From Candidatus Heimdallarchaeota archaeon (GTDB taxonomy: Archaea > Asgardarchaeota > Heimdallarchaeia > Heimdallarchaeales > Heimdallarchaeaceae): a stretch of 20,510 nucleotides of DNA. Made by a program: the position numbers and the translations under genes. The stretch is taken from the NCBI GenBank assembly GCA_019057375.1, contig DXJF01000071.1:1-20510 (forward strand), read 5' to 3'. Under the pieces are notes generated by a model. That model had not been told where the DNA came from. It saw only the letters and a list, made by a program, of their open reading frames with translations, and did not search any database. Positions within the stretch are counted from its first letter, which is position 1. Each line of letters begins with the position of its first letter. Shown one piece after another: positions 3,838 through 20,510 of this stretch.

Positions 3838-5001
3838 CTATTTCCTTTTCTTAATGTATACAGCTAATGGTATTGCCAGGAATATAGTAATCATGACGAA
3901 TGACAAGTAACCACTAATATATTCAAAAATCACTGGAACATAACCTAAAGGATAAAGGTCTTCAGAACCTACTGCACCATCAATAGTATAGGAACTACCA
4001 GTTGAACCAGTAAAATCGTCCCACCAATTACCCTCTAGTAACACTTCATCATACCATTGATCTCCAGCGTCATCTAACGCTTGAATTGTACTGCCAGCAA
4101 GATTATTATCAAAGAATGCATTATGATATATCTTGTTAATTCCTACGGAAAGAGACATGCTTAGCCCATATGATGTACTAGATTCAAAGTGATTGTTAGT
4201 GATTAAACTATTTGATGAACCCACTATCCTCATGCCAAAGAAATTGCCAATTAGATAATTATTGGAAATAATTAAATCTAGGCTGTTTTCGGCCAAAATT
4301 CCAGTATCAACATTATTTGAACAATTATTATGAGTGATGCTTGTACCATTTGAGTTCTCTATACTTATTCCTATCCCAGTAGTTTCGTCGAGTATATTTT
4401 TGTGTATTATAACTCCATGAGAATCTAGTATGTGAATACCAAGTTCTGCAACAATCTTATTATTCTTAACGTAAGTGAAGTCAGATTCTCTTATATCGAT
4501 TCCACCTGTAAAGGAGACTATATAGTTATCATTAATTGCAGAGCTTATTCCTCCATTTAGTTTAATACCATCATTTCCTGTTGAGATTATCACATTATTG
4601 AGAATGACTACCGTTTCTTCAGCCATGTTCTGATATTTACCTAAGTAGATTGCATAGTTTGTGTCTGTCTTCAGAAAACAATTTTGGATAATGAAATGTT
4701 TAGTAGTATATCCACCGAAATTAAGACAATAATCACCAGAAGTTGTGATATTGTAATTTTCAATACGATAAGGGTCAACAGCTGATCCTTCTCCAGGCAA
4801 TCCATAAGATTCAAAATCAGAATCATAATCAATAGTCATTGGTGACTGTACAATCAAATCTTCTAATGATGGTTGATCTGAGGGGAAACTCAAGGATGTT
4901 TTAGCAGATGAGTTACTAACTCCTGCATCTAATGCAACATTATAAAGAATTAAGAGAGATAGAATTAACATTATTGATACTTTTAGATTGTTTTTTTTCA
5001 C
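3838..5001 (-). CDS. Membrane-anchored right-handed beta-helix (NosD/CASH) surface protein
   Basis: 387 aa, GTG start. N-terminal signal/TM, PGEGSAVDPYRIEN motif, repeated GIxIxxSxxxxIxxN beta-helix coils, GNWWDD...EDLYPL, C-terminal TM plus KKRK tail. Confidence 0.85.
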   Translation of the reverse strand: MKKNNLKVSIMLILSLLILYNVALDAGVSNSSAKTSLSFPSDQPSLEDLIVQSPMTIDYDSDFESYGLPGEGSAVDPYRIENYNITTSGDYCLNFGGYTTKHFIIQNCFLKTDTNYAIYLGKYQNMAEETVVILNNVIISTGNDGIKLNGGISSAINDNYIVSFTGGIDIRESDFTYVKNNKIVAELGIHILDSHGVIIHKNILDETTGIGISIENSNGTSITHNNCSNNVDTGILAENSLDLIISNNYLIGNFFGMRIVGSSNSLITNNHFESSTSYGLSMSLSVGINKIYHNAFFDNNLAGSTIQALDDAGDQWYDEVLLEGNWWDDFTGSTGSSYTIDGAVGSEDLYPLGYVPVIFEYISGYLSFVMITIFLAIPLAVYIKKRK

Positions 5002-8685: not shown

Positions 8686-10434
8686 ATGTTCTTCTCCAGC
8701 AAAAAAAAGTTTGTTTTGAAATCTATTATATTCATAATACTTATTCTATCTATTCTGTCTTCTTTTATAATTTGTACACAATTTTCTTTTGAGGAACAAA
8801 AAAGTGATAGTGTACTAGCTCAAATGTCATTAACAGACTCTTCGATACTTGTAGTCCATGATCCAATAATTATTGATAGTGATTCAGATTTGGATACTTT
8901 AGGATTTCCTGGGGATGGAAGTATAGATAATCCGTACATCATAGAAAACTTTCGCATAGTTGTTGATGATTATTATTCCATCTCAATATCAAGCACATCA
9001 AAATATATTACTATTCGAAGTTGCTACACTGAATCAATAAATTCAGGTATAAGAATTGATGATACAGTAAGTTCAAACACAATTTTGATTGAAGATAATG
9101 AATGTAGAAATAGTGTTTATGGAATAAAGATTCGAACTTCATCTTCAATTATTCAAAATACTTGTATTAATAATACCTATGGCATTTCAATTAAAAGTTC
9201 ACCAACTTCGAAGGTTCATAATAATGAATGCTTAGATAATAGAGTAATGGGAATAACAATTTCTGATTCAGCAAATTCTGAAGTAAAAGGCAATATATGT
9301 TCAAATAGTCAAAGAGAAGATGGAATTCATATAGACAATTCTCCTAATACAAGAGTAGAAGATAATACTTGCAAGAATAATGGCTATAATGGAATTTGGA
9401 TACGCTATTCACACTCATCAATCATTTCCCACAACGAACTTACAAATAACGGATTAACGATTTACGAAAACAATAAGGGTGATTATTTGTCTTACTCTTT
9501 TGAAAGTAATAGTGTTAATGCTAAAATTCTAGGATATATCGAATCCCAAAGTGATATAATATTAGAAGAACCAATATATGGTCAAATATTTCTAATTGAT
9601 TGTGAAAATGTTGTAGTGAAAAATCAAGAGATTTACGATGCTAGTATTGGAATTAAGGTTTTATATTCAAAATCTATAACGATTCAAAAAAACATTTGCT
9701 TAGAAAATTCTTGGTATGCAGGAATACATATTGAACATTCTACTGAGTGTAAAGTAATGGATAATGAATGTTGGTTCAATGAAATGGCGGGTATTAGAAT
9801 CACATCATCAGAAAATACAACAATAGAAAATAATCTTGTTGTTTATAATAAGATTGGAATTTCTATTGATTATTCCTTATTTTCTTCAATTACAGATAAT
9901 CAATTACTCAATAATACTCTTTCAGGATTAAGTGCATATGAAATTGATTACTCTAATATTTGGAACAATACATGTTTCAGGAATGATAGAGGAATAGCTT
10001 TAGCTGCAACTGCAGATTGTGAAATTAAACACAATTTCTTTTCAAGCAACACTTTACATGGTTTGTTTTTAAGATACGGGACTTATAACAATACAGTACA
10101 TCATAACGCGTTTGTTGATAACAATATCAATGAACATTCTCAAGCTAAAGATGACGGGGAAGGTAACTTATGGTATGATGTGATTTCTGAAGAGGGAAAT
10201 TACTGGTCAAATATTGGACAAAATTATACTTATATGATAGAAGGATCAGCAAATTCCATAGATTCTTATCCATTAAGTGTATCACCAATATCAATTGAAC
10301 TACCAACTCTACCAATTCCTCCGTTTATAAATACTGAAAAGACGATTTTTCAATTCTATCCTATTTATGTAATAAGCTTATTGTTTGTCATATATATATT
10401 CTTGAAAAGAAAGAGATTTCAATACGTTGACTGA
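8686..10434 (+). CDS. Membrane-anchored right-handed beta-helix (NosD/CASH) surface protein
   Basis: 582 aa. N-terminal TM/signal, HDPIIIDSDSDL..LGFPGDGSIDNPYIIEN, many GIxIxxSxxxxIxNN coils, GNYWSN...IDSYPL, Pro-rich linker, C-terminal TM plus KRKR. Paralog of 3838-5001. Confidence 0.88.
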   Translation: MFFSSKKKFVLKSIIFIILILSILSSFIICTQFSFEEQKSDSVLAQMSLTDSSILVVHDPIIIDSDSDLDTLGFPGDGSIDNPYIIENFRIVVDDYYSISISSTSKYITIRSCYTESINSGIRIDDTVSSNTILIEDNECRNSVYGIKIRTSSSIIQNTCINNTYGISIKSSPTSKVHNNECLDNRVMGITISDSANSEVKGNICSNSQREDGIHIDNSPNTRVEDNTCKNNGYNGIWIRYSHSSIISHNELTNNGLTIYENNKGDYLSYSFESNSVNAKILGYIESQSDIILEEPIYGQIFLIDCENVVVKNQEIYDASIGIKVLYSKSITIQKNICLENSWYAGIHIEHSTECKVMDNECWFNEMAGIRITSSENTTIENNLVVYNKIGISIDYSLFSSITDNQLLNNTLSGLSAYEIDYSNIWNNTCFRNDRGIALAATADCEIKHNFFSSNTLHGLFLRYGTYNNTVHHNAFVDNNINEHSQAKDDGEGNLWYDVISEEGNYWSNIGQNYTYMIEGSANSIDSYPLSVSPISIELPTLPIPPFINTEKTIFQFYPIYVISLLFVIYIFLKRKRFQYVD

Positions 10435-10443
10435 CGATTTCTT

Positions 10444-10476
10444 TATCCTTGTCTTAAGGTCCCCTTCTTGGAGTTT
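10444..10476 (+). repeat. Dispersed direct repeat, copy 1
   Basis: TATCCTTGTCTTAAGGTCCCCTTCTTGGAGTTT; 27/33 identical to the copy at 16201. Lies between convergent stop codons. Confidence 0.75.
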
Positions 10477-10486
10477 AATAGCTTCT

Positions 10487-11500
10487 TTAGTGAACAATTC
10501 TTGTAAGTTTAGCTCCACATCTTGGACATGAATATGTTTTTGGAGGAATCTTACAATTACAATTCGGACAATACTTGATCTTCTGTTTATCTATGGTTGT
10601 ATCTATTCCTAGAGGTTCCAAAAAGATTCCTTTATCCTTTACCTTCCATGTGTATAAAAATGCACCTTCGACCTCTTCTACTACATTTTCCGGAAGAGTA
10701 ATTCTGTTTTGATTATCCATAACTAGCAATCTGGAACTATCTAAATCCATTAAGTTAACACCTAAACCATGTTCCCCTATAATGATTCCATCATTTATTT
10801 CCAAAGATCTCCCAGAATATTCGGCAACTATAGGATCATGAGAACAGACAAGATAAGACGTTCCCATATCATTTGATAAGTCTTTGAATAACTCAAGAAT
10901 CTGTGAAGAATTTTCTGCATCTAAGTTCCCTGTTGGTTCATCTGCCAATATTAACTGGGGTTCATTTGCTAAAGCTCTAGCAATTGCTACACGTTGTATT
11001 TCTCCACCTGATAGTCTATTAGGAGTATGATTTTTTCTATGACTAATGTCTAATCTTTTCATAAGTTCGTTAGATTTTTCTTTTCTCTTTGTTTGAGGAA
11101 CAGAATTAAGTTTCATTGGCATTTCTATGTTCTTTTCTGCTGATAGATGATTGATCAAATTATGTTCTTGGAAAACATACCCAATATTGTTTCTTCTGAA
11201 ATTATGCATTTCTTCCTCAGGAAGTTTTGATATATCGGTACCGTCAGAATAAATGATTTTACCCGCTGTTGGTTTCAACATTCCTCCAAGTGAAAGTAGA
11301 AGTGTAGATTTGCCTGAACCACTAGGTCCAACAATGCCTAGTATTTCACCTTTCTTTATATCAAAAGATACGCCTTTGAGAGCTACTACCTTATTCTGAA
11401 GTTTCAATCCATAAACATGATAAACGTCTATAATTTGGCTTGATAGATTTTCTGGTAAAGGTTGGGGTTCAGAGTTATTTGTTTTCATTTTGTTAGACAT
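10487..11500 (-). CDS. ABC transporter ATP-binding protein (LolD/MacB-type) with C-terminal AbrB-like segment and zinc ribbon
   Basis: Walker A GPSGSGKS, signature LSGGE, Walker B LILADE, H-loop CSHD. The extension LVMDNQNRITLPENVVEEV resembles AbrB/SpoVT, followed by CPNC-x9-CPRC. Confidence 0.88.
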   Translation of the reverse strand: MSNKMKTNNSEPQPLPENLSSQIIDVYHVYGLKLQNKVVALKGVSFDIKKGEILGIVGPSGSGKSTLLLSLGGMLKPTAGKIIYSDGTDISKLPEEEMHNFRRNNIGYVFQEHNLINHLSAEKNIEMPMKLNSVPQTKRKEKSNELMKRLDISHRKNHTPNRLSGGEIQRVAIARALANEPQLILADEPTGNLDAENSSQILELFKDLSNDMGTSYLVCSHDPIVAEYSGRSLEINDGIIIGEHGLGVNLMDLDSSRLLVMDNQNRITLPENVVEEVEGAFLYTWKVKDKGIFLEPLGIDTTIDKQKIKYCPNCNCKIPPKTYSCPRCGAKLTRIVH

Positions 11501-11508
11501 ATCATCAC

Positions 11509-14304
11509 CTATTGAGTTCTCATCTCCTCAACAACATTAATTCTAGAAGCGAAAATTGCAGGTATAAGAGCAGACAATATTATTACTATAAACGAAATGA
11601 CTACTGTTACAATAAGAGATGTAACTGGTATGTATAACAGTCTGTTAAATGTGGCTAAATCAAAAACATCAAAGAAACTATTGAACTGGTAAGCTGATAA
11701 GAATCCTATAACAAATCCAAATAATGTTGAGAATATTGCTAAAGACATAATTTCACATAAGACTAATTTGATTAACTGCTTCTTTGAAGTTCCTTCTGCA
11801 ATCAAAATTGCAAATTCCTTTCTTCTTTTGTTTATAATCATAAACATAAAAATGGATATCCCGATTATTATTGCTGAAATGGAAATAATATAATCAATAG
11901 ATAATAATCCTGGTATACCATAGAATCTACCTTGAGAATCTTCCACTTCCTTAAGTACGTCATCATAAGTATAAACTTCACTTATCCACTCAAATGAATT
12001 TAGCAGTTCTGTTTGTAAATTGTTAGAAGCAGGATCAATACCAGGTTTAAGATTGATAATCGCACGAATTAATCTAGTGTCATTCAAGAAATTAGTTAGT
12101 AAGAATTCAGTATCTGTTAAAACATTTAAATCATTCGAATATTGATCAACATTTTCTATTGCTGGTATATGATTGAAAAAAACCTCCGCAACGGCAGAAG
12201 CTGTTGGTAAATATGAACCTCTGCTAGCAAAGCTAAGTGTGGAATTTTGTGTTACCTCTATAAGTTCTTTAGTTTCCTCATTTACAGCAATTGTATTGGT
12301 AGGATTATCCTCTAGAGGAGATAAACCTTCTTTCCAGTTTTTATTACCAACAAGAGAATCCCTATGCCAATTAGCGTTTTCCTTATACAGTGAAATATTC
12401 GTACCATAACAATGAGCTGTACGATAATAACTTGAAGCTATTGAGAGTTTTAAATTTGCATAGTAGATAGGTACAATTGACTCTATCTGATCTTCAAAAC
12501 CTGTGAAATTAGTTTCGGATAGAACGAGTGAAGATGTATAAATTTCTACCTTCAGATCTCCTCCTACAATGAATTCAGCTTGTCTATTTAGTGCATTATC
12601 TCCAGTATATCCTTGAATCGCAGCTAATACACTTAAAGAAATAGATAAACAAAGAAGTACAGTTATCCGAGGATAATGCTGATTTCTTCTACTTAGACTT
12701 CCTTTAATTAACATTCCAATATCCTTGAAAAATCTTATAATGAATTTATCTAGAATTTCTGGGATTTTTGTTGCTACTCGACTTGCTATGAATGCAGCGC
12801 CAAACCACAGAAATATTGGAGATATAAATTGAATTAAAACTGTTGAAAAACCAAATGATGTCTCTGGATTAAATTCTTGGATGAGATTTAGAATAACACC
12901 TAATAAACCAATGATGAAAAATATAAAATCACCATATATTCGTTTGAAGAGATTAGGTTTCTTCTTCTCAATTGTACCGCCTTCAACAACTTCTTGAGAA
13001 ATGAAGGTTTTTGTTTTTATTGATGAAGTGATTAAAGATATCCCCATAGAAATTGAGATTGTACCTAGAATTGAAAGAGGAGTTAAACTTATTGTTCGAA
13101 AAGCTTCACCAAATGTAGAAAAATCTAAAGTCATAAAACGTGAAATAGATAGCACAAGTGAAGAGATTAAAGTTCCCAAAAAAATACCAATAAGTGAGGT
13201 AATTGATCCAATAATTATCACTTCAGTATAAATCACTTGCTTGACTTGTTTTGGACTTGCTCCTTGTGCTTTTAAAGAAGCAATTTCGTGTTTTCTCTCC
13301 TGCAAGGACAGTTCAGTTCCTGAAGTTGTGAGAATTAAAGAAAGAAATATTGCGGGGATATAGAGAATAGTATCGATAAGTTGCATTATAATAATTCTCA
13401 TCTGATTTTCTCCAAGCCAAGTAGAAACAATATTAATACCTAATATCTCTCCTCCATTTTGGATTTCAACTCTCTCTACTAAACTGTCAATCTTCCTATT
13501 TAATTCCTGTAATTCATTAACAGGTAAATTTGAATAATCCAATTTAGTAAAAAAACTATAGAGTTTGTATTCAGTTAATCTATCTATTAGTTCTGTGTCT
13601 AAATCCTCACTTGAAAATATTACAGCGCTATCATCAAAGAGAATTGATTGGAAGAATCCTGATACTGTAAGATTAATGAGAGAGTAATAGATTGAAGTGA
13701 AAGTGTAACCATCAGGGTGAATAAAAATTTGACCAATAGTCATATTGAAATTTAGTGTCTGATTAACTGAAATACCATATGTACGGGCAATCTTATCTGA
13801 TAATAAACAACCTCTATTATCAAAATTGAGATCACCTTGAATAATTTTAAGATCTTGAATTAACTCTCCTTCTTGATCAGTAGAATCAAATATATTTGCT
13901 TCAAAATTCTCTCCCCAGGGGAAATGTATGATATCTGTGGAATTATCTTCTAGCAAGTAAAAACCTGTTAAATAATATATTTTCCCTGAAAAATCCTGAC
14001 CATAGAAAATCGTTGTATCAATAAATTCTTCATTCTCCTCAATTGATTCTGCTAATTCTGTGGGTGATTTTGAAGTATTTATTGCTGCATTTGGATAAAA
14101 AATTACTTCAGCTTCAACATCATTTACAATATCTTGAACAGCAATAGTGTTTACTTGTGCTCCATAAAAGAAAATACTTGAGAAAATTGCCGCACCTAGA
14201 ATTATCCCTGCTCCTATCGATAAATTCCTTCTTTTATGGGAAATTATAGAATGAAATGCGTAACCAATATATGAAAAGGGGTTCCCTATTTTCATTTTTT
14301 TCAT
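11509..14304 (-). CDS. FtsX/MacB-family ABC permease with duplicated permease module
   Basis: 931 aa. Two FtsX-type segments (ERKHEIASLKAQGAS and KRRKEFAILIAEGTS), large extracellular domains, C-terminal PAIFASRINVVEEMR. Confidence 0.88.
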   Translation of the reverse strand: MKKMKIGNPFSYIGYAFHSIISHKRRNLSIGAGIILGAAIFSSIFFYGAQVNTIAVQDIVNDVEAEVIFYPNAAINTSKSPTELAESIEENEEFIDTTIFYGQDFSGKIYYLTGFYLLEDNSTDIIHFPWGENFEANIFDSTDQEGELIQDLKIIQGDLNFDNRGCLLSDKIARTYGISVNQTLNFNMTIGQIFIHPDGYTFTSIYYSLINLTVSGFFQSILFDDSAVIFSSEDLDTELIDRLTEYKLYSFFTKLDYSNLPVNELQELNRKIDSLVERVEIQNGGEILGINIVSTWLGENQMRIIIMQLIDTILYIPAIFLSLILTTSGTELSLQERKHEIASLKAQGASPKQVKQVIYTEVIIIGSITSLIGIFLGTLISSLVLSISRFMTLDFSTFGEAFRTISLTPLSILGTISISMGISLITSSIKTKTFISQEVVEGGTIEKKKPNLFKRIYGDFIFFIIGLLGVILNLIQEFNPETSFGFSTVLIQFISPIFLWFGAAFIASRVATKIPEILDKFIIRFFKDIGMLIKGSLSRRNQHYPRITVLLCLSISLSVLAAIQGYTGDNALNRQAEFIVGGDLKVEIYTSSLVLSETNFTGFEDQIESIVPIYYANLKLSIASSYYRTAHCYGTNISLYKENANWHRDSLVGNKNWKEGLSPLEDNPTNTIAVNEETKELIEVTQNSTLSFASRGSYLPTASAVAEVFFNHIPAIENVDQYSNDLNVLTDTEFLLTNFLNDTRLIRAIINLKPGIDPASNNLQTELLNSFEWISEVYTYDDVLKEVEDSQGRFYGIPGLLSIDYIISISAIIIGISIFMFMIINKRRKEFAILIAEGTSKKQLIKLVLCEIMSLAIFSTLFGFVIGFLSAYQFNSFFDVFDLATFNRLLYIPVTSLIVTVVISFIVIILSALIPAIFASRINVVEEMRTQ

Positions 14305-14305
14305 T

Positions 14306-15040
14306 TTATTTCCTCTTCTTAGATGTTCTTTCCCTTATCTCATTTGATTTCTCTTCTATTACTTTACCCTCTTGAAGTATATAGACTCTGTCTGTTTCTC
14401 TTGCTGCTCTATGATCATGAGTACAAATAATAACAGTGATATCCATATTATGACTGATATCCTTTAGAAGTTGAATGATTTTCATTCCAGTAACTGCATC
14501 TAAGTTTCCTGTAGGTTCATCAGCGTAGATAATATTGGGTTCATGAGCTAATGCTCGTGCAATTGCAACGCGTTGTTGTTCCCCCCCACTTAATTCTTCT
14601 GGAAGATGGTCTTTACGGGAATACAAATCAACAGCTTCTAAATATTGTAGTGCTTTTGTTTCAGCATCGCTATGAGAAACACCTCTAACTATCAAGGGAA
14701 GCTTGACATTCTCTAAAGCTGTTAAATAATCAATTAAAGCGAAACTCTGAAAGATGATAGCTGAATGAGATCTTCGAAAATTAAGCAGTTCAGAAGTTTT
14801 CAGTTTGTTTATATGAACTCCATCAATATTCACTTCTCCAGCTGTTAAAGACTCTAAAGATGATAGAATATTGACGAGAGTAGATTTTCCACTTCCTGAA
14901 GGCCCCATCACAGCAACGAATTCTCCTTGATCGATTTCCAGATTCAAGCCAGTGAGAACATGAACACTATTTCCATCAGGTAATTCGAAGTTTTTCACTA
15001 AATCTTTAGTTACAACTGCTGATTCCTTTCTATTTCTCAT
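14306..15040 (-). CDS. ABC transporter ATP-binding protein (LolD/MacB-type)
   Basis: 244 aa. GPSGSGKS, LSGGEQQRVAIARAL, IIYADEPTGNLD, CTHD. Stop codon is 1 nt from the permease start. Confidence 0.92.
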   Translation of the reverse strand: MRNRKESAVVTKDLVKNFELPDGNSVHVLTGLNLEIDQGEFVAVMGPSGSGKSTLVNILSSLESLTAGEVNIDGVHINKLKTSELLNFRRSHSAIIFQSFALIDYLTALENVKLPLIVRGVSHSDAETKALQYLEAVDLYSRKDHLPEELSGGEQQRVAIARALAHEPNIIYADEPTGNLDAVTGMKIIQLLKDISHNMDITVIICTHDHRAARETDRVYILQEGKVIEEKSNEIRERTSKKRK

Positions 15041-15129
15041 AGTCCATTGACTTTAGTGACAGACATTTATATTACTAGCTAAATCAATTACCTAGTTTGT
15101 ATTATAGGCGAAAAGCTGTCTCTTTCATT

Positions 15130-15188
15130 AAACTTGGCTTTAAGGTCTATTTCCTGGAAGTTCAAACTCTACAAAAACCTCTTCTTAT
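15130..15188 (+). repeat. Dispersed direct repeat, copy 2 (most diverged core, long 3' extension)
   Basis: AAACTTGGCTTTAAGGTCTATTTCCTGGAAGTTC-AAACTCTACAAAAACCTCTTCTTAT; 44/60 identical to 16201-16260 with one gap. Lies in a divergent intergenic region. Confidence 0.6.
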
Positions 15189-16198: not shown

Positions 16199-16200
16199 TT

Positions 16201-16260
16201 TAACCTTGCTTGAAGGTCCTCTTCTTGGAGCTTCCAAACTCTTTGAATACTTCTTCTTAT
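16201..16260 (+). repeat. Dispersed direct repeat, copy 3
   Basis: TAACCTTGCTTGAAGGTCCTCTTCTTGGAGCTTCC(AAACTCTTTGAATACTTCTTCTTAT). Begins 2 nt after the QueG-like stop. The first 35 nt are 31/35 identical to 20161-20195. Confidence 0.8.
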
Positions 16261-17090: not shown

Positions 17091-17870
17091 CTAGATTTCG
17101 TTCCACCTTTGAAAAAAGAGATCTTTCATAGATTTCATGACTTCATTTATTTCCTTAATAATTGTATCTTTGTTTCCTAAGTCTTTTATACTACTTCCAA
17201 TTGTCCAACAATTTTCTTTAAAAATAATAAATCTATCATGTATTTTCTTGTTTATTTTCACTCTGACTTCAATAGCAGATTCTTTCTTCATTTTTTCTAT
17301 ATAATCATCAAATTTCTCCTTATTATAAATGTTCGCTGTTAGAATCTTCAAACTTTTTATTTTATCCTTTAGCACTATGAAAGGAAACAGAGTTTGCGTA
17401 GAAACATGGGAATCACACAATAAAATTTCCTCACACTCACATTGATTAATTAGGAAATCTTCAAAGAACTTGATAGCAGAAAAATTTTCTCCTGATTTAA
17501 AAATGTAAACTGGTCTTTTTCCAAATTGTCCAGTTATTTGATTTAACTTCTTTAATCCCTTACTCATGAATTTTAACTTTCCATTTTTCTCAAGAATGAA
17601 AGATTTCTTTTTTGCATCAAAAACATATTTTCTGAAATCATCTTCTTTTCTTCCCAGAGATTTAAACACATTTTTGCATTTATTATATTCAGCTCCAGAA
17701 ATACCAATATTATATTCTATCAGATGAATAGAAAGCAATAAAACATCCAAATTTGTTAAAGTATCATCAGCTATTATGTCATCATAATGTTTGTGAAATA
17801 AACCAGATATCTCTTTAGGAATATCAAAAGTCCCAATTTCCTCGTCTTCATCAGTGTTTTTGGATAACAT
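17091..17870 (-). CDS. Putative wHTH-like DNA-binding domain fused to a PLD-like nuclease domain
   Basis: 259 aa, AGAGG RBS. The C-terminal half has EEILLCDSHV, IHDRFII (H211, HxR variant of HxK) and GSSIKDLG, the pattern of single-domain PLD-superfamily HDR-type domains. The N-terminal helical part ends in a KNGKLKFMSKG wing-like hairpin (fold inferred). Confidence 0.65.
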   Translation of the reverse strand: MLSKNTDEDEEIGTFDIPKEISGLFHKHYDDIIADDTLTNLDVLLLSIHLIEYNIGISGAEYNKCKNVFKSLGRKEDDFRKYVFDAKKKSFILEKNGKLKFMSKGLKKLNQITGQFGKRPVYIFKSGENFSAIKFFEDFLINQCECEEILLCDSHVSTQTLFPFIVLKDKIKSLKILTANIYNKEKFDDYIEKMKKESAIEVRVKINKKIHDRFIIFKENCWTIGSSIKDLGNKDTIIKEINEVMKSMKDLFFQRWNEI

Positions 17871-17887
17871 TTTTAACCTCTATTTAA

Positions 17888-18307
17888 TCATTCAGAATTT
17901 ATTTTATCAAGAAATTCTTCAATTTTACTAGGATTGAATTGATATACACCATCATTTGGTTTAATAATGAAATTTCTATCAAATAATGTTGAAACATGAC
18001 CTCGAACACTTGATTCACTTAATTTTGTCATTTTATATAATTCCTTCAATGTAATTGATTCGCTGATATTACCTTCTAATCTGTTTGCAAGATATCTAGC
18101 TAAGATTATTAAAGCAATTGTATCAATCTTTTGAAGATTCTTATTTTCTATAATTACTCTACCTTCAGAAGTTATCTTGCAGTGTTTTAATATTTGCATT
18201 ACATATTGTTTTGTTTTGGTTGTATTATAGACAAAACTATCCACAATAAATTGCTGTTTTAAAGTTTCTAACTCTTCCATTTCGTTCTCCCGATTTTCAA
18301 GATTCAT
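17888..18307 (-). CDS. Winged-helix DNA-binding protein, paralog 3
   Basis: 139 aa, GGAG RBS. ITLKELYKMTKLSESSVRGHVSTL HTH followed by a DGVYQFNP wing. Aligns with the two upstream ORFs. Confidence 0.75.
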   Translation of the reverse strand: MNLENRENEMEELETLKQQFIVDSFVYNTTKTKQYVMQILKHCKITSEGRVIIENKNLQKIDTIALIILARYLANRLEGNISESITLKELYKMTKLSESSVRGHVSTLFDRNFIIKPNDGVYQFNPSKIEEFLDKINSE

Positions 18308-18331
18308 TTATTACATCTCCTTTAGGGTTTG

Positions 18332-18742
18332 TTAACCTTTATCCTTATTTTTCTTAAAAGTAGTACTAATATTGTTTATGTCTTCAGTTATTTCAACTGG
18401 ATTGATGAAGAATCTTCCTCTTTCAGAGGAACATAATTTCTTCTTCCTTTTAAGTTCAGATAATCTTGAACTAATTGTGTCTTTGGTTTTACCTGTAAAA
18501 TCTATTAGTTCCTGGTTTGATACCTCAGGTTTTTCTCTTAAACCTAGATCATGAGCAAATCTTGCACCTACAATATACAGTAGTATATTTTGCTTATCAG
18601 TAAGGGTTTTTGCTGGTATTTTGAACTTTATAACTCCATTAGTTTTATTTATCTGAAGTAGTGGTTCTACCTTCAAAATTATATCTTGAAGAATCTCCTC
18701 ATCATCAAATAATAGCTCTTTTAATTGTTCCTTGTATGTCAT
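18332..18742 (-). CDS. Winged-helix DNA-binding protein, paralog 2
   Basis: 136 aa, GGTGA RBS. VSNQELIDFTGKTKDTISSRLSELKR HTH followed by an ERGRFFINP wing. Confidence 0.78.
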   Translation of the reverse strand: MTYKEQLKELLFDDEEILQDIILKVEPLLQINKTNGVIKFKIPAKTLTDKQNILLYIVGARFAHDLGLREKPEVSNQELIDFTGKTKDTISSRLSELKRKKKLCSSERGRFFINPVEITEDINNISTTFKKNKDKG

Positions 18743-18750
18743 GAATTCAC

Positions 18751-19143
18751 CTATATGTGTTTCGAAATTATATTCTCAAGAAAGCTCTTTATATCATAAA
18801 AAACCACTTCATATTTTCCTCTATCTTTAAATCTGACCTTTCTTTCTCGTACTAGTTCTGATATACGAGCAGATGAGATTTTTTTATCAGCATTTAGGTT
18901 TCTTGAAATTTCATCAAGGGTAATAACGCAGTCATCTGATAGTTCTGCTTCATGAGCAAACTTCTTTCCAATAAGTAGAAGCAGGATCTTTTCTTTGAGA
19001 CTTATCTCCTTCCCTTGAATTTTAAGAAGAATATCTCCATTTTCTGTAATGCCAATAACCTTACTTGCTAAAGATACAAGTTCTTTCAAATTCTCTTCCT
19101 CACGTATTAGAAGAGCTTTCCGAATAGTTTCCTTTTTTGACAC
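18751..19143 (-). CDS. Winged-helix DNA-binding protein, paralog 1
   Basis: 130 aa, GTG start with GGTGA RBS at 19154-19150. ITLDEISRNLNADKKISSARISELVR HTH followed by a DRGKYEV wing. Confidence 0.78.
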   Translation of the reverse strand: MSKKETIRKALLIREEENLKELVSLASKVIGITENGDILLKIQGKEISLKEKILLLLIGKKFAHEAELSDDCVITLDEISRNLNADKKISSARISELVRERKVRFKDRGKYEVVFYDIKSFLENIISKHI

Positions 19144-19177
19144 TTAATGTCACCATAAATAACAGCAGTGATAAAAG

Positions 19178-19194
19178 TATATAAATCTTTTTTT
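19178..19194 (-). promoter_or_regulatory. Archaeal BRE + TATA box of the wHTH operon
   Basis: Minus strand reads AAAAAAAGA-TTTATATA, with the TATA ending 35 nt before the GTG at 19143. This is a canonical archaeal TATA with purine-rich BRE at plausible spacing. Confidence 0.6.
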
Positions 19195-19540
19195 ACACGC
19201 TAGTTTTAAATTGTACATGTGTAGGCTTCTAATGCCGAAATTAAGAGTATAGATAGTGTGTTATGACGCCATTTTAGCGTATTCTTTGTATTACGCTACA
19301 CTTAAAATAGAAGATATAAATAAACCACATTTCTATGCTCTAGAGATTGGAAATCTCTTCTAACAATCGAGTTCTTACATGAAAAGAAATAAAAAATAAT
19401 TAGCTTATATGTAGTAGAAGAAATTAATGTAAATTTCTTTAAGTTTGTGATCATTTTCTTTATTCTGCAAAACCTACTCTCTTCCTAGAAGTAGGATGAT
19501 TTGAGATTACTTTTTGTTTCTAAAGTTAGATGAAACAACA

Positions 19541-20101
19541 TTATAAGTGCATAATCTCAAAATCCCATTCTCCTTTCCTTTTTTCAGATGGAATTCCTCT
19601 TCCTTCTCTGTAGTAGTTTTCATACCATGTTCCTCTGTAGTTAACAAATCGGTAGAAATCAGTATTTTTATCAATACTAAGGAAGTATACTCTTTTAATA
19701 TCATTATCATGTTTTTTTAGATATTGAAACTTCTGTATGTCTTTTTGAGCTTCTTCATCTTTTAATTTTGGTAGGAACTTAAACTCAAAAACAAACCAAA
19801 ATCGTCCTATATCTCGGTACCAAAATTCTTCATTTTCCCATTCTGAAGCTACTTGTGACTTCATTATCACTAAATCGTAGAAATAATTATAATCTGGATC
19901 TTTGTATTTTAAGAACAGTCTAGTTCCTGGGTATTTATCGATAAAGGTCCTCAGATGGTGATAAAATGAAGCAATTAAAGTATCTTCATAATACATTATA
20001 TTTCTATTCTCCAAATCCTCCTTTACTTTTACAGCCCATACTCTTTCGATTTCCTTTTCTAGTTCACTTATGTTAGGATAATTCTTCATTCTTTCATTCA
20101 T
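19541..20101 (-). CDS. PD-(D/E)XK restriction-endonuclease-like protein
   Basis: 186 aa, GGAGG RBS. Ordered motifs EDTLIASFYHHL, YDLVI, VFEFK and KDIQKFQYL match the PD-(D/E)XK core. It has no cysteines, so it is not Cas4. Confidence 0.65.
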   Translation of the reverse strand: MNERMKNYPNISELEKEIERVWAVKVKEDLENRNIMYYEDTLIASFYHHLRTFIDKYPGTRLFLKYKDPDYNYFYDLVIMKSQVASEWENEEFWYRDIGRFWFVFEFKFLPKLKDEEAQKDIQKFQYLKKHDNDIKRVYFLSIDKNTDFYRFVNYRGTWYENYYREGRGIPSEKRKGEWDFEIMHL

Positions 20102-20160
20102 TAAACAACCTCCTCTGATTGCACATAATTATTTGATTATATCTTTATTAATTTTATGAT

Positions 20161-20195
20161 TAACTTTGCATTAAGGTCTTCTTCTTGGAGCTTCC
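20161..20195 (+). repeat. Dispersed direct repeat, copy 4
   Basis: TAACTTTGCATTAAGGTCTTCTTCTTGGAGCTTCC; 31/35 identical to 16201-16235, exactly 3960 nt away. Confidence 0.8.
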
Positions 20196-20281
20196 TCCTT
20201 GTAAGAAGATGTTGCTGATTACAGGATACTGCAAAGTACTTATTACAGGAAATTTCCTAAGCTAGCTACTTCAAAAGTTTC

Positions 20282-20510
20282 ATTTTCTCACTACTAAGTT
20301 TAACTTAAACTTTCATCAGCCCATTCTGGACGGTAATCGTGTTTGATTAATTATTTTCACACTACTAAGTTTAACTTAAACTTTATAGATGTCCGAAATG
20401 TAATGCTGTCTTAAAAGATTTTCACACTACTAAGTTTAACTTAAACATAATATTTGTTTTAAACGTTCTGCCTTATCCATATATTTTCACACTACTAAGT
20501 TTAACTTAAA
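20282..20510 (-). CRISPR. CRISPR array, probable trailer end (4 repeats, 3 spacers visible; truncated by window edge)
   Basis: 29-nt repeat ATTTTCACACTACTAAGTTTAACTTAAAC at 20353-20381, 20418-20446 and 20483-20510 (last base cut), plus a one-mismatch copy at 20282-20310. Unique spacers of 42, 36 and 36 nt. The reverse complement GTTTAAGTTAAACTTAGTAGTGTGAAAAT has the usual GTTT...GAAA(A)T polarity, and the degenerate copy then falls at the trailer. Confidence 0.92.

Follow-up and report, generated by a model that had tools for sequence, protein, structure and literature searches.

What is a compact operon that encodes three small winged-helix proteins and a larger two-domain protein doing in the genome of an Asgard archaeon? 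We addressed this question for four genes, W1, W2, W3 and N4, in a 20,510-nt stretch of DNA from Candidatus Heimdallarchaeota archaeon (GenBank assembly GCA_019057375.1, contig DXJF01000071.1, positions 1 to 20,510), hereafter the window. An earlier note, made from the sequence alone, had proposed the operon as a candidate undescribed defence or DNA-processing system. We found that its genes belong to a conserved cassette scattered across many phyla and that N4 is predicted to adopt a phospholipase D (PLD) fold carrying an invariant polar signature. On balance, the operon is somewhat more probably than otherwise a horizontally acquired conflict module, serving either in anti-virus or anti-plasmid defence or as a toxin-antitoxin-like addiction cassette, in which winged helix-turn-helix (wHTH) regulators accompany a nuclease that depends on dimerisation.

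Gene structure of the operon

The list of open reading frames and the sequence place four co-oriented genes on the minus strand, with gaps of 8, 24 and 17 nt between W1 and W2, W2 and W3, and W3 and N4, respectively.

18751..19143, minus strand: W1, family-A winged-helix protein (130 aa, GTG start)
18332..18742, minus strand: W2, family-A winged-helix protein (136 aa)
17888..18307, minus strand: W3, family-A winged-helix protein (139 aa)
17091..17870, minus strand: N4, predicted effector with a winged helix and an MIT_C-type PLD fold (259 aa)

A conserved cassette with a patchy distribution

Homologues of N4 extend far beyond this genome. There are 116 word-indexed homologues with 45-61% identity, the named ones coming from Aenigmatarchaeota, Nanoarchaeota, Pacearchaeota, Diapherotrites, Parvarchaeota, Bathyarchaeia, Conexivisphaerales and Heimdallarchaeaceae, and 20 genome loci add Woesearchaeota, Nitrososphaerota, Methanoperedens, Ignavibacteria and Bacteroidota. 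An exhaustive profile search returned 42 clusters at E ≤1e-30, which represent the full-length N4 family, and about 3000 clusters at E ≤1e-3, most of which share the PLD domain alone.

We used our own hidden Markov models to classify 66 loci drawn from 20 genomes and 80 metagenome contigs. In most of these loci, the N4 homologue (N) directly follows small genes of family A, to which W1-W3 belong, and/or of a second family, B, in the same orientation and often with overlapping frames. Family B proteins have about 132 aa and no Pfam match, and resemble A and the N-terminus of N4 only faintly, in colinear profile alignments. The order A-B-N accounted for 27 of the 66 loci and B-A-B-N for three, while B adjoined N in other forms in 11, seven of them cut by a contig end. 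Another seven carried A-N or A-A-N without B, and the window was the only locus with A-A-A-N and no B. The genes therefore form a co-conserved unit across many phyla, as the reading of the earlier note required. The operon of three paralogues that it described is real here but is not the general form, which is A-B-N with two different small families. Because A-B-N is commoner and no other locus has three A genes, we regard the three paralogues as a rare local variant. At locus L009 (1801-2709), a 302-aa protein occupies the A slot, its first half belonging to family A and its second half containing a weak PaaX-like helix-turn-helix region; it looks as if two small winged-helix units had been fused, a hint that units of this kind work jointly.

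Searches of 40 relatives, 24 being other species of the same genus and 16 being genomes from the order, recovered no cassette. It is single-copy, with no further copies of A, B or N4 in this genome, and its flanks vary from genome to genome (e.g., RpoB, ArgRS, ribonucleotide reductase and PPDK). The patchy spread over phyla, the absence from relatives, the single copy and the differing flanks point to horizontal transfer. As judged from this distribution, the cassette appears to have been acquired horizontally, and the copy in this Asgard genome would be a recent arrival. An empty-site comparison gave no precise insertion boundary, the flanking genes not being syntenic within the genus; in one relative (G004), 30 kb separates the match to the ABC ATPase gene from that to the Fe-S gene.

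Predicted fold and conserved signature of N4

The N4 model was confident (mean predicted local distance difference test score, pLDDT, of 92) and comprised two domains joined by a short low-confidence linker.

17517..17804, minus strand: winged helix, residues 23-118 (helix, hairpin, three-helix winged helix, C-terminal helix)
17094..17516, minus strand: PLD-fold domain, residues ~116/119-259 (VIA, Foldseek)
17169..17240, minus strand: predicted active-site motif His211-Lys234, H-D-R ... G-x-S-I-K-D-L-G-N-K (conservation), with partner Asp153 at 17412-17414

The N-terminal domain matched SSV1 F-93, AF1382, the Rio2 winged helix and DtxR (VIA Z 9.1-9.7), and the order and topology of its elements are identical to those of the W1 model. 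Sequence comparison gave no proof that A, B and the N4 N-terminus are paralogous: profile-profile E values ranged from 0.004 to 0.23, with alignments colinear across the winged helix. The C-terminal domain has the alpha/beta fold of PLD proteins in the predicted model. Its VIA scores against MITD1, FAM83, the SauUSI nuclease domain (21% identity), Zucchini, NucT and Nuc were effectively tied (Z 11.3-12.3). The matches to Nuc, NucT, Zucchini and SauUSI covered 132-135 residues at Z 11.5-12.1 and a root-mean-square deviation (rmsd) of 2.9-3.3 Å (Foldseek E 5e-5 to 4e-4). The confident model and the matches from both programs thus bore out the claim of a PLD-fold domain behind a wHTH N-terminus.

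Seven residues (D153, T160, H211, W222, G225, G232 and K234) were invariant across 73 N4 homologues. When relatives with 26-34% identity and other architectures were added, D153, H211, R213, G225, S227, I228, K229, D230, G232, N233 and K234 were still invariant. Such persistence of a His/Asp/Arg/Ser/Lys/Asn signature, down to relatives of 26% identity, is what an active site typically shows, and these residues may form one. His211 and Gly225-x-Ser227 (His +14/+16) are in register with the canonical motif HxK(x)4D(x)6GSxN, but N4 has Arg213 at +2, no conserved Asp at +7 and Ile228 at +17. Since Arg replaces Lys and Asn is out of place, the motif is not a canonical HKD motif. The PLD-like nuclease of the earlier note therefore stands as to its fold and not as to its motif, and the non-canonical, MIT_C-type site makes nuclease activity of N4 a prediction.

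The site corresponds to the signature of MIT_C and PB-PLD1 domains, with Asp153 after strand 148-152 and His211-Asp-Arg213 before strand 214-217. MITD1 (4a5z) was the only solved structure detected from N4 by sequence (E 0.002-0.003), with the Asp and I-H-D-R aligned by HMMER; against Pfam MIT_C (PF16565), N4 scored 16.9 bits, below the gathering score of 25 (E 0.006). An acidic residue after beta2 and HDR before beta5 occur in MIT_C, in PB-PLD1 of some Menshen NsnC proteins and in many BrxL C-termini, and these Asp/Glu + HDR domains have been proposed as enzymes, with further study said to be needed (PMC12065111). For Menshen NsnC variants and BrxL C-termini, the effector role predicted for this Asp + HDR domain is that of a nuclease (PMC12065111).

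Both domains of N4 also occur in other combinations. The exhaustive profile search recovered two such proteins, both from metagenomes and on contigs of 1.5-2.5 kb. In P0339, an N4-type N-terminal module (E 2e-19, profile positions 10-114) is followed by a RiboL-PSP HEPN domain, and in P0353 a TIR domain is followed by an Asp + HDR PLD domain. Conflict systems typically exchange nuclease-type domains behind an unchanging N-terminal module, and the swaps argue that the PLD domain is the output rather than a ligand sensor.

W1, W2 and W3 belong to one winged-helix family

W1 and W2 share 31% identity across 126 residues (E 3e-14), and W1 and W3 are colinear at 23% identity with a marginal E of 0.02. 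Pairwise comparison of W2 and W3 detected no similarity. A family-A profile built from the homologues of other genomes only nevertheless found all three (E 5e-24 for W1, 2e-22 for W2 and 4e-19 for W3), aligning them end to end with the family. W1 and W2 are both nearest to the A proteins of loci L008/L052 (E 6e-23 for W2). W3 has its nearest relatives in the B-less cassettes L005 (Pacearchaeota) and L053 (metagenome), whose A proteins match it at E 2e-20, and it is closer to these foreign homologues than to W1 or W2. By these relationships the three are old paralogues, in keeping with their earlier description as diverged triplicates rather than recent copies. The family-B profile gave no match to W3, although W3 fills the slot held by B in most other cassettes.

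In the W1 model (pLDDT 87), a pair of N-terminal helices and a beta hairpin precede a three-helix winged helix complete with wing, and a further helix closes the C-terminus. Helices 49-65, 76-83 and 87-99 and the wing at 103-113 supply the three-helix bundle and beta wing that define a winged helix. Foldseek returned generic MarR, ArsR and Crp winged helices only (E ~0.01 or weaker) and no specific fold relative. At the sequence level, W1-W3 matched the winged-helix regions of HTH_24, RepL, AbiEi and Csa3 at or below cut-offs, including W2 to Pfam HTH_24 (E 0.002) and W3 to the Pfam RepL winged-helix region (E 2e-4; 21.2 bits versus a cut-off of 20.3). One family-A relative reaches the Pfam TrmB winged-helix (E 1e-5) and HTH_24 models at their cut-offs. 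None of the clusters of family A, at least 404 in number, has a name or a Pfam domain.

Candidate regulatory sites

Two features upstream of W1 may control expression of the operon.

19178..19194, minus strand: candidate archaeal promoter, with the TATA-like element TTTATATA at 19185-19178 and a purine-rich stretch resembling a transcription factor B recognition element (BRE) at 19194-19186
19197..19298, no strand: candidate operator, three TAGCGT half-sites (sequence motif count)

One TATA-like element stands ahead of the operon, 35 nt before the W1 GTG start; resemblance to the consensus makes it a candidate promoter. A Shine-Dalgarno-like box (GGTGA, GGAG or GAGG) stands 6-9 nt 5' of each of the four starts. 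The gene structure had been accurately described from the outset, with its one TATA/BRE-like element, four co-oriented genes, three short gaps and a ribosome-binding site each. Scans for sigma-70 promoters and intrinsic terminators were uninformative, as expected for an archaeon. The G+C content of the operon (0.26-0.27, against about 0.31) is the minimum of the window, in line with a mobile cassette.

One TAGCGT half-site (19197-19202) abuts the BRE-like stretch, and the other two form the inverted repeat TAGCGTA-N10-TACGCTA at 19275-19298. Three of the six TAGCGT copies in the window fall within this 100-nt stretch, where 1.8 would be expected for the whole window and the motif was picked post hoc. 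The upstream regions of five related cassettes had no clear operator motif in common, making TAGCGT a local, post-hoc candidate. The cluster is a possible operator for autorepression.

Genomic context

The operon lies about 1.1 kb from the degenerate-repeat end of an array of clustered regularly interspaced short palindromic repeats (CRISPR), with one 186-aa gene between.

20281..20510, no strand: CRISPR array end (29-32-nt repeat, 65-71-nt period, first copy degenerate), running off the contig

The same repeat opens contig C8 (locus L023, 1-8989), which encodes on one strand a complete type I-B set of cas1, cas4, cas3, cas5, cas7, cas8b (TM1802) and cas6. Because the repeat is shared with C8, the array is not cas-less, and the assembly breaks inside it. 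Beyond the cas genes, at 9394-10827 of C8, lies a gene for a 477-aa TrmB/HTH_24 winged-helix protein. The 186-aa gene (19541-20101) had no Pfam or PADLOC match and no relative beside any other cassette. Neither this gene nor the flanking 109-aa gene showed linkage to the cassette in the 20 genome loci, and they were therefore not counted as parts.

Elsewhere, the commonest recurrent neighbour families belong to restriction-modification systems (types I, II and III), as judged from raw counts without a matched background. The 90 neighbours of the 20 genome loci include five N6/N4 methyltransferases (in L002, L003, L004 and L009), one C5 methyltransferase and two ResIII helicases, which abut N in L002 and L003. 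Among the 79 neighbours of 25 metagenome loci are six methyltransferases together with HsdS, HsdM, HsdR and Eco57I-, PstI- and MjaI-type genes. The context is defence-like, with type I-B CRISPR-Cas here and recurrent restriction-modification genes in other genomes. In two loci from DPANN archaea (L002:2212-6757 and L003:6734-11968), the stop codon of the cassette lies 2-4 nt from that of a convergent ResIII helicase gene, followed by a large N6/N4 methyltransferase and a ~230-aa protein, so that a type III-like restriction-modification set stands tail to tail with the cassette.

The window also contains a short repeated unit.

10443-10478, 15129-15164, 16200-16235 and 20160-20195: co-oriented intergenic copies of a 36-nt unit

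The unit has the core TTGC-N-T-N-AAGGTC-NN-CTTCTTGGAG-N-TTCC. It is low-copy and genus-wide, with six copies in this genome and 3-4 in two relatives, and reversed-pattern controls gave none. The last two copies in the window are 89% identical and flank a 4-kb stretch holding the operon and the two unlinked genes. The unit may be a recombination site, a terminator or an RNA. Two units also bound a MacB-like ABC operon (10487-15040), which encodes a 931-aa FtsX-type permease and a pair of ABC ATPases. One of the ATPases bears a zinc ribbon at its C-terminus, and their genes have in common a 121-nt stretch at 72% identity. Further genes of the window encode NosD/right-handed beta-helix repeat proteins of 387 and 582 aa on opposite strands (3838-5001 and 8686-10434), near a condensation-domain protein (1394-2704) and a GNAT acetyltransferase (40-1047).

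A proposed mechanism and its alternatives

If the operon is a conflict module, N4 would be its effector, placed on nucleic acid by its winged helix. Its single MIT_C-type PLD half-site (Asp153, His211-Asp-Arg213, Ser227, Lys229, Asn233 and Lys234) would pair with that of a second copy to make one active site, and the dimer would cut phosphodiester bonds via a phospho-histidine intermediate. Pairing of two copies into one active site is established for the single-motif PLD nucleases Nuc, BfiI and Zucchini. W1-W3, or A and B in most other genomes, would regulate N4 and would probably repress the operon at the TAGCGT sites. These small proteins may also keep N4 inactive, whether through direct binding or through competition for the same DNA. 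Since W1 has the topology of the N4 N-terminal domain, they could pair with N4 or compete with it on DNA, gating its dimerisation. Infection or loss of the cassette would then release N4. The regulator-first, effector-last order and the overlapping frames of other cassettes would fit a toxin-antitoxin-like or abortive-infection design. The earlier note had cast the small proteins as a heteromeric scaffold that recruits or licenses the nuclease. The gene order agrees equally well or better with their being inhibitors or autorepressors.

Comparison to known defence systems gave a mixed answer to the expectation that PADLOC would return no hit. No named system covers the architecture as a whole, but two PADLOC models of PDC-S05 (PDLC04879 and PDLC04869) recognise the PLD domain, with E values of 1e-10 to 1e-19 over N4 and its relatives (1.4e-14 for N4). 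In E. coli B, one PDC-S05 representative lowered the plating of T7 and T5 by about 1000-fold and also protected against T4 (10.1101/2024.09.26.614923).

Several observations weigh against a nuclease-based conflict module. The Lys and Asn of the canonical HKD motif are missing from N4, and we know of no MIT_C-type domain for which enzymatic activity has been demonstrated. MITD1 is called a membrane-binding PLD fold in the title of reference 87 of PMC12065111. The match of N4 to the PDC-S05 models is confined to their C-terminal 40-45% (positions 160-278 of 285 and 155-292 of 306), and the PDC-S05 member that was tested carries a RhuM domain with no counterpart in N4. No relatives of N4 were found in IMG/VR, PLSDB or INPHARED, and about three quarters of the loci have housekeeping neighbours only. 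Finally, the best full-length Foldseek matches of N4 were TrmBL2 (5bpd, 5bpi and 5bqt; E 1e-8) and TrmB (3qph).

TrmBL2 and TrmB are DNA-binding regulators whose PLD-like domain is not catalytic. The operon could likewise be a transcription or chromatin set, with W1-W3 as co-regulators and the PLD-like domain of N4 binding a phosphate-bearing ligand or oligomerising. The family-A relative that reaches the TrmB winged-helix cut-off (E 1e-5) is consistent with such a role, as are the lack of shown catalysis for the MIT_C domain of MITD1 and the fact that the non-nucleolytic PLD-like folds of FAM83 and PPK score equally with the nucleases. Even so, we consider this explanation unlikely. N4 superposes on full-length TrmBL2 with an rmsd of 18-22 Å, meaning that the two share domain order only, and N4 has no match to Pfam TrmB or Regulator_TrmB (E up to 1). 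Regulators without target genes of their own would not be expected to spread across phyla yet miss 40 close relatives. The polar signature invariant to 26% identity and the swapping of the N-terminal module onto HEPN and of the PLD domain onto TIR also argue against it.

N4 could instead be a sequence- or modification-dependent restriction endonuclease, combining a winged-helix reader with a PLD cutter, while W1-W3 act as transcriptional timers in the manner of C proteins. This explanation overlaps with a conflict module, the main difference being the role of the small proteins. In its favour, the SauUSI nuclease domain (Z 12.1, with 21% identity), NgoAVII R (Z 10.0) and BfiI (Z 9.7) all align with the PLD domain of N4, and restriction-modification genes abut the cassette in L002, L003, L004, L009 and several metagenome loci. 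NgoFVII-family enzymes, an Atlas lead with a score of 0.76 only, combine a DpnI_C winged helix with PLDc_2. However, most loci, this window included, have no methyltransferase nearby, the adjoining restriction-modification systems have Res or R subunits of their own, and N4 matched no REBASE-type PADLOC model above noise. We consider a restriction enzyme an improbable account of the cassette. A maintenance or replication module of an integrated element, with Rep- or partition-like winged-helix binders and N4 as a nicking or processing enzyme, is very unlikely: W3 marginally passes the RepL cut-off, the pNOB8 centromere-binding protein gives a weak fold match, the 90 neighbours include two integrase genes and the operon sits within the 4-kb stretch bounded by the 89%-identical 36-nt direct repeat, but the RepL match is limited to the generic winged-helix part, the two other genes in that stretch are unlinked to the cassette elsewhere, the window has no integrase, primase, helicase or partition ATPase, and the virus, plasmid and phage collections hold no homologues.

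The conflict-module reading can be sharpened into a narrower claim, which we advance only tentatively and regard as open to considerable doubt: that the A/B-N cassette is a new, mainly archaeal immune or addiction family in which small winged-helix decoys or partners gate the dimerisation of an MIT_C-type PLD nuclease. Few defence systems beyond CRISPR and restriction-modification are recognised in archaea, and in DPANN especially (PMC12988326), and this small unnamed cassette is widespread there. Being compact and tractable, it lends itself to testing whether the Asp + HDR (MIT_C-type) PLD domain is an enzyme, a question that has been raised for BrxL of BREX, Menshen NsnC variants and human MITD1 (PMC12065111). 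If a gated PLD nuclease is indeed at work, it would be the first enzymatic function for this domain, which is present also in BrxL, Menshen NsnC variants and eukaryotic MITD1. The A-B (common), B-A-B, A-alone, A-A-fusion and A-A-A (this window) forms provide a natural series for studying how partners control an effector. The absence of the cassette from all 40 relatives implies recent transfer and hence no link to the origin of eukaryotic MITD1, on which its presence in this Asgard genome is uninformative.

Comparison with known systems

The A/B-N cassette is described in no paper found by our literature search, and its closest database entity, PDC-S05, shares the effector domain only. The N-terminal half of PDC-S05 is unrelated to the N4 winged helix. 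PDC-S05 has been treated as a single-gene, mainly bacterial candidate (PMC12988326), whereas N4 homologues do not stand alone, having A and/or B genes directly upstream in most of the 66 loci.

MIT_C (PF16565; human MITD1, 4a5z and 2ymb) gave the best VIA score of N4 (Z 12.3) and has the same Asp + HDR signature. Relative to MIT_C and PB-PLD1 proteins, N4 lacks a MIT domain and ParB, NsnA/B or BREX partners, and it adds the invariant S-I-K-D-L-G-N-K. N4 had no Nsn match, no Nsn family was among the top neighbour families, and a distant relative, P0114, alone touches NsnC (E 4e-4), which separates the cassette from Menshen (NsnABC).

The single-motif PLD nucleases (Nuc 1byr, NucT 6ehi, Zucchini 4ggj, BfiI 2c1l, NgoAVII R 4rct and the SauUSI head 7clg) match the fold of N4 at Z 9.7-12.1 over 131-137 residues. 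Like N4, they have one His half-site per chain, and BfiI and NgoAVII each carry a DNA-binding domain on the same chain, as does N4. They differ in that N4 has Arg for the motif Lys, no Asn at +17 and no sequence-level match to them, and the DNA-binding domain of BfiI and NgoAVII is C-terminal and B3-like, whereas that of N4 is an N-terminal winged helix. BfiI and DrmC, previously offered as precedents, are analogues of N4 by fold only. TrmB and TrmBL2 (3qph, 5bpd) have a winged helix followed by a PLD-like domain, the same order as in N4. In contrast to these regulators, N4 has no coiled-coil arm and falls outside their Pfam families; the PLD-like domain of TrmB is not known to keep a His/Asp/Arg site.

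Relative to type II toxin-antitoxin systems, the cassette has two or three upstream proteins rather than one and matches no known toxin or antitoxin family. The likeness lies in its design: genes for small DNA-binding proteins precede one for a nuclease-like protein, with tight coupling or overlap between them, palindromic sites lie at the promoter, and the cassette is small, apparently mobile and often found in small genomes.

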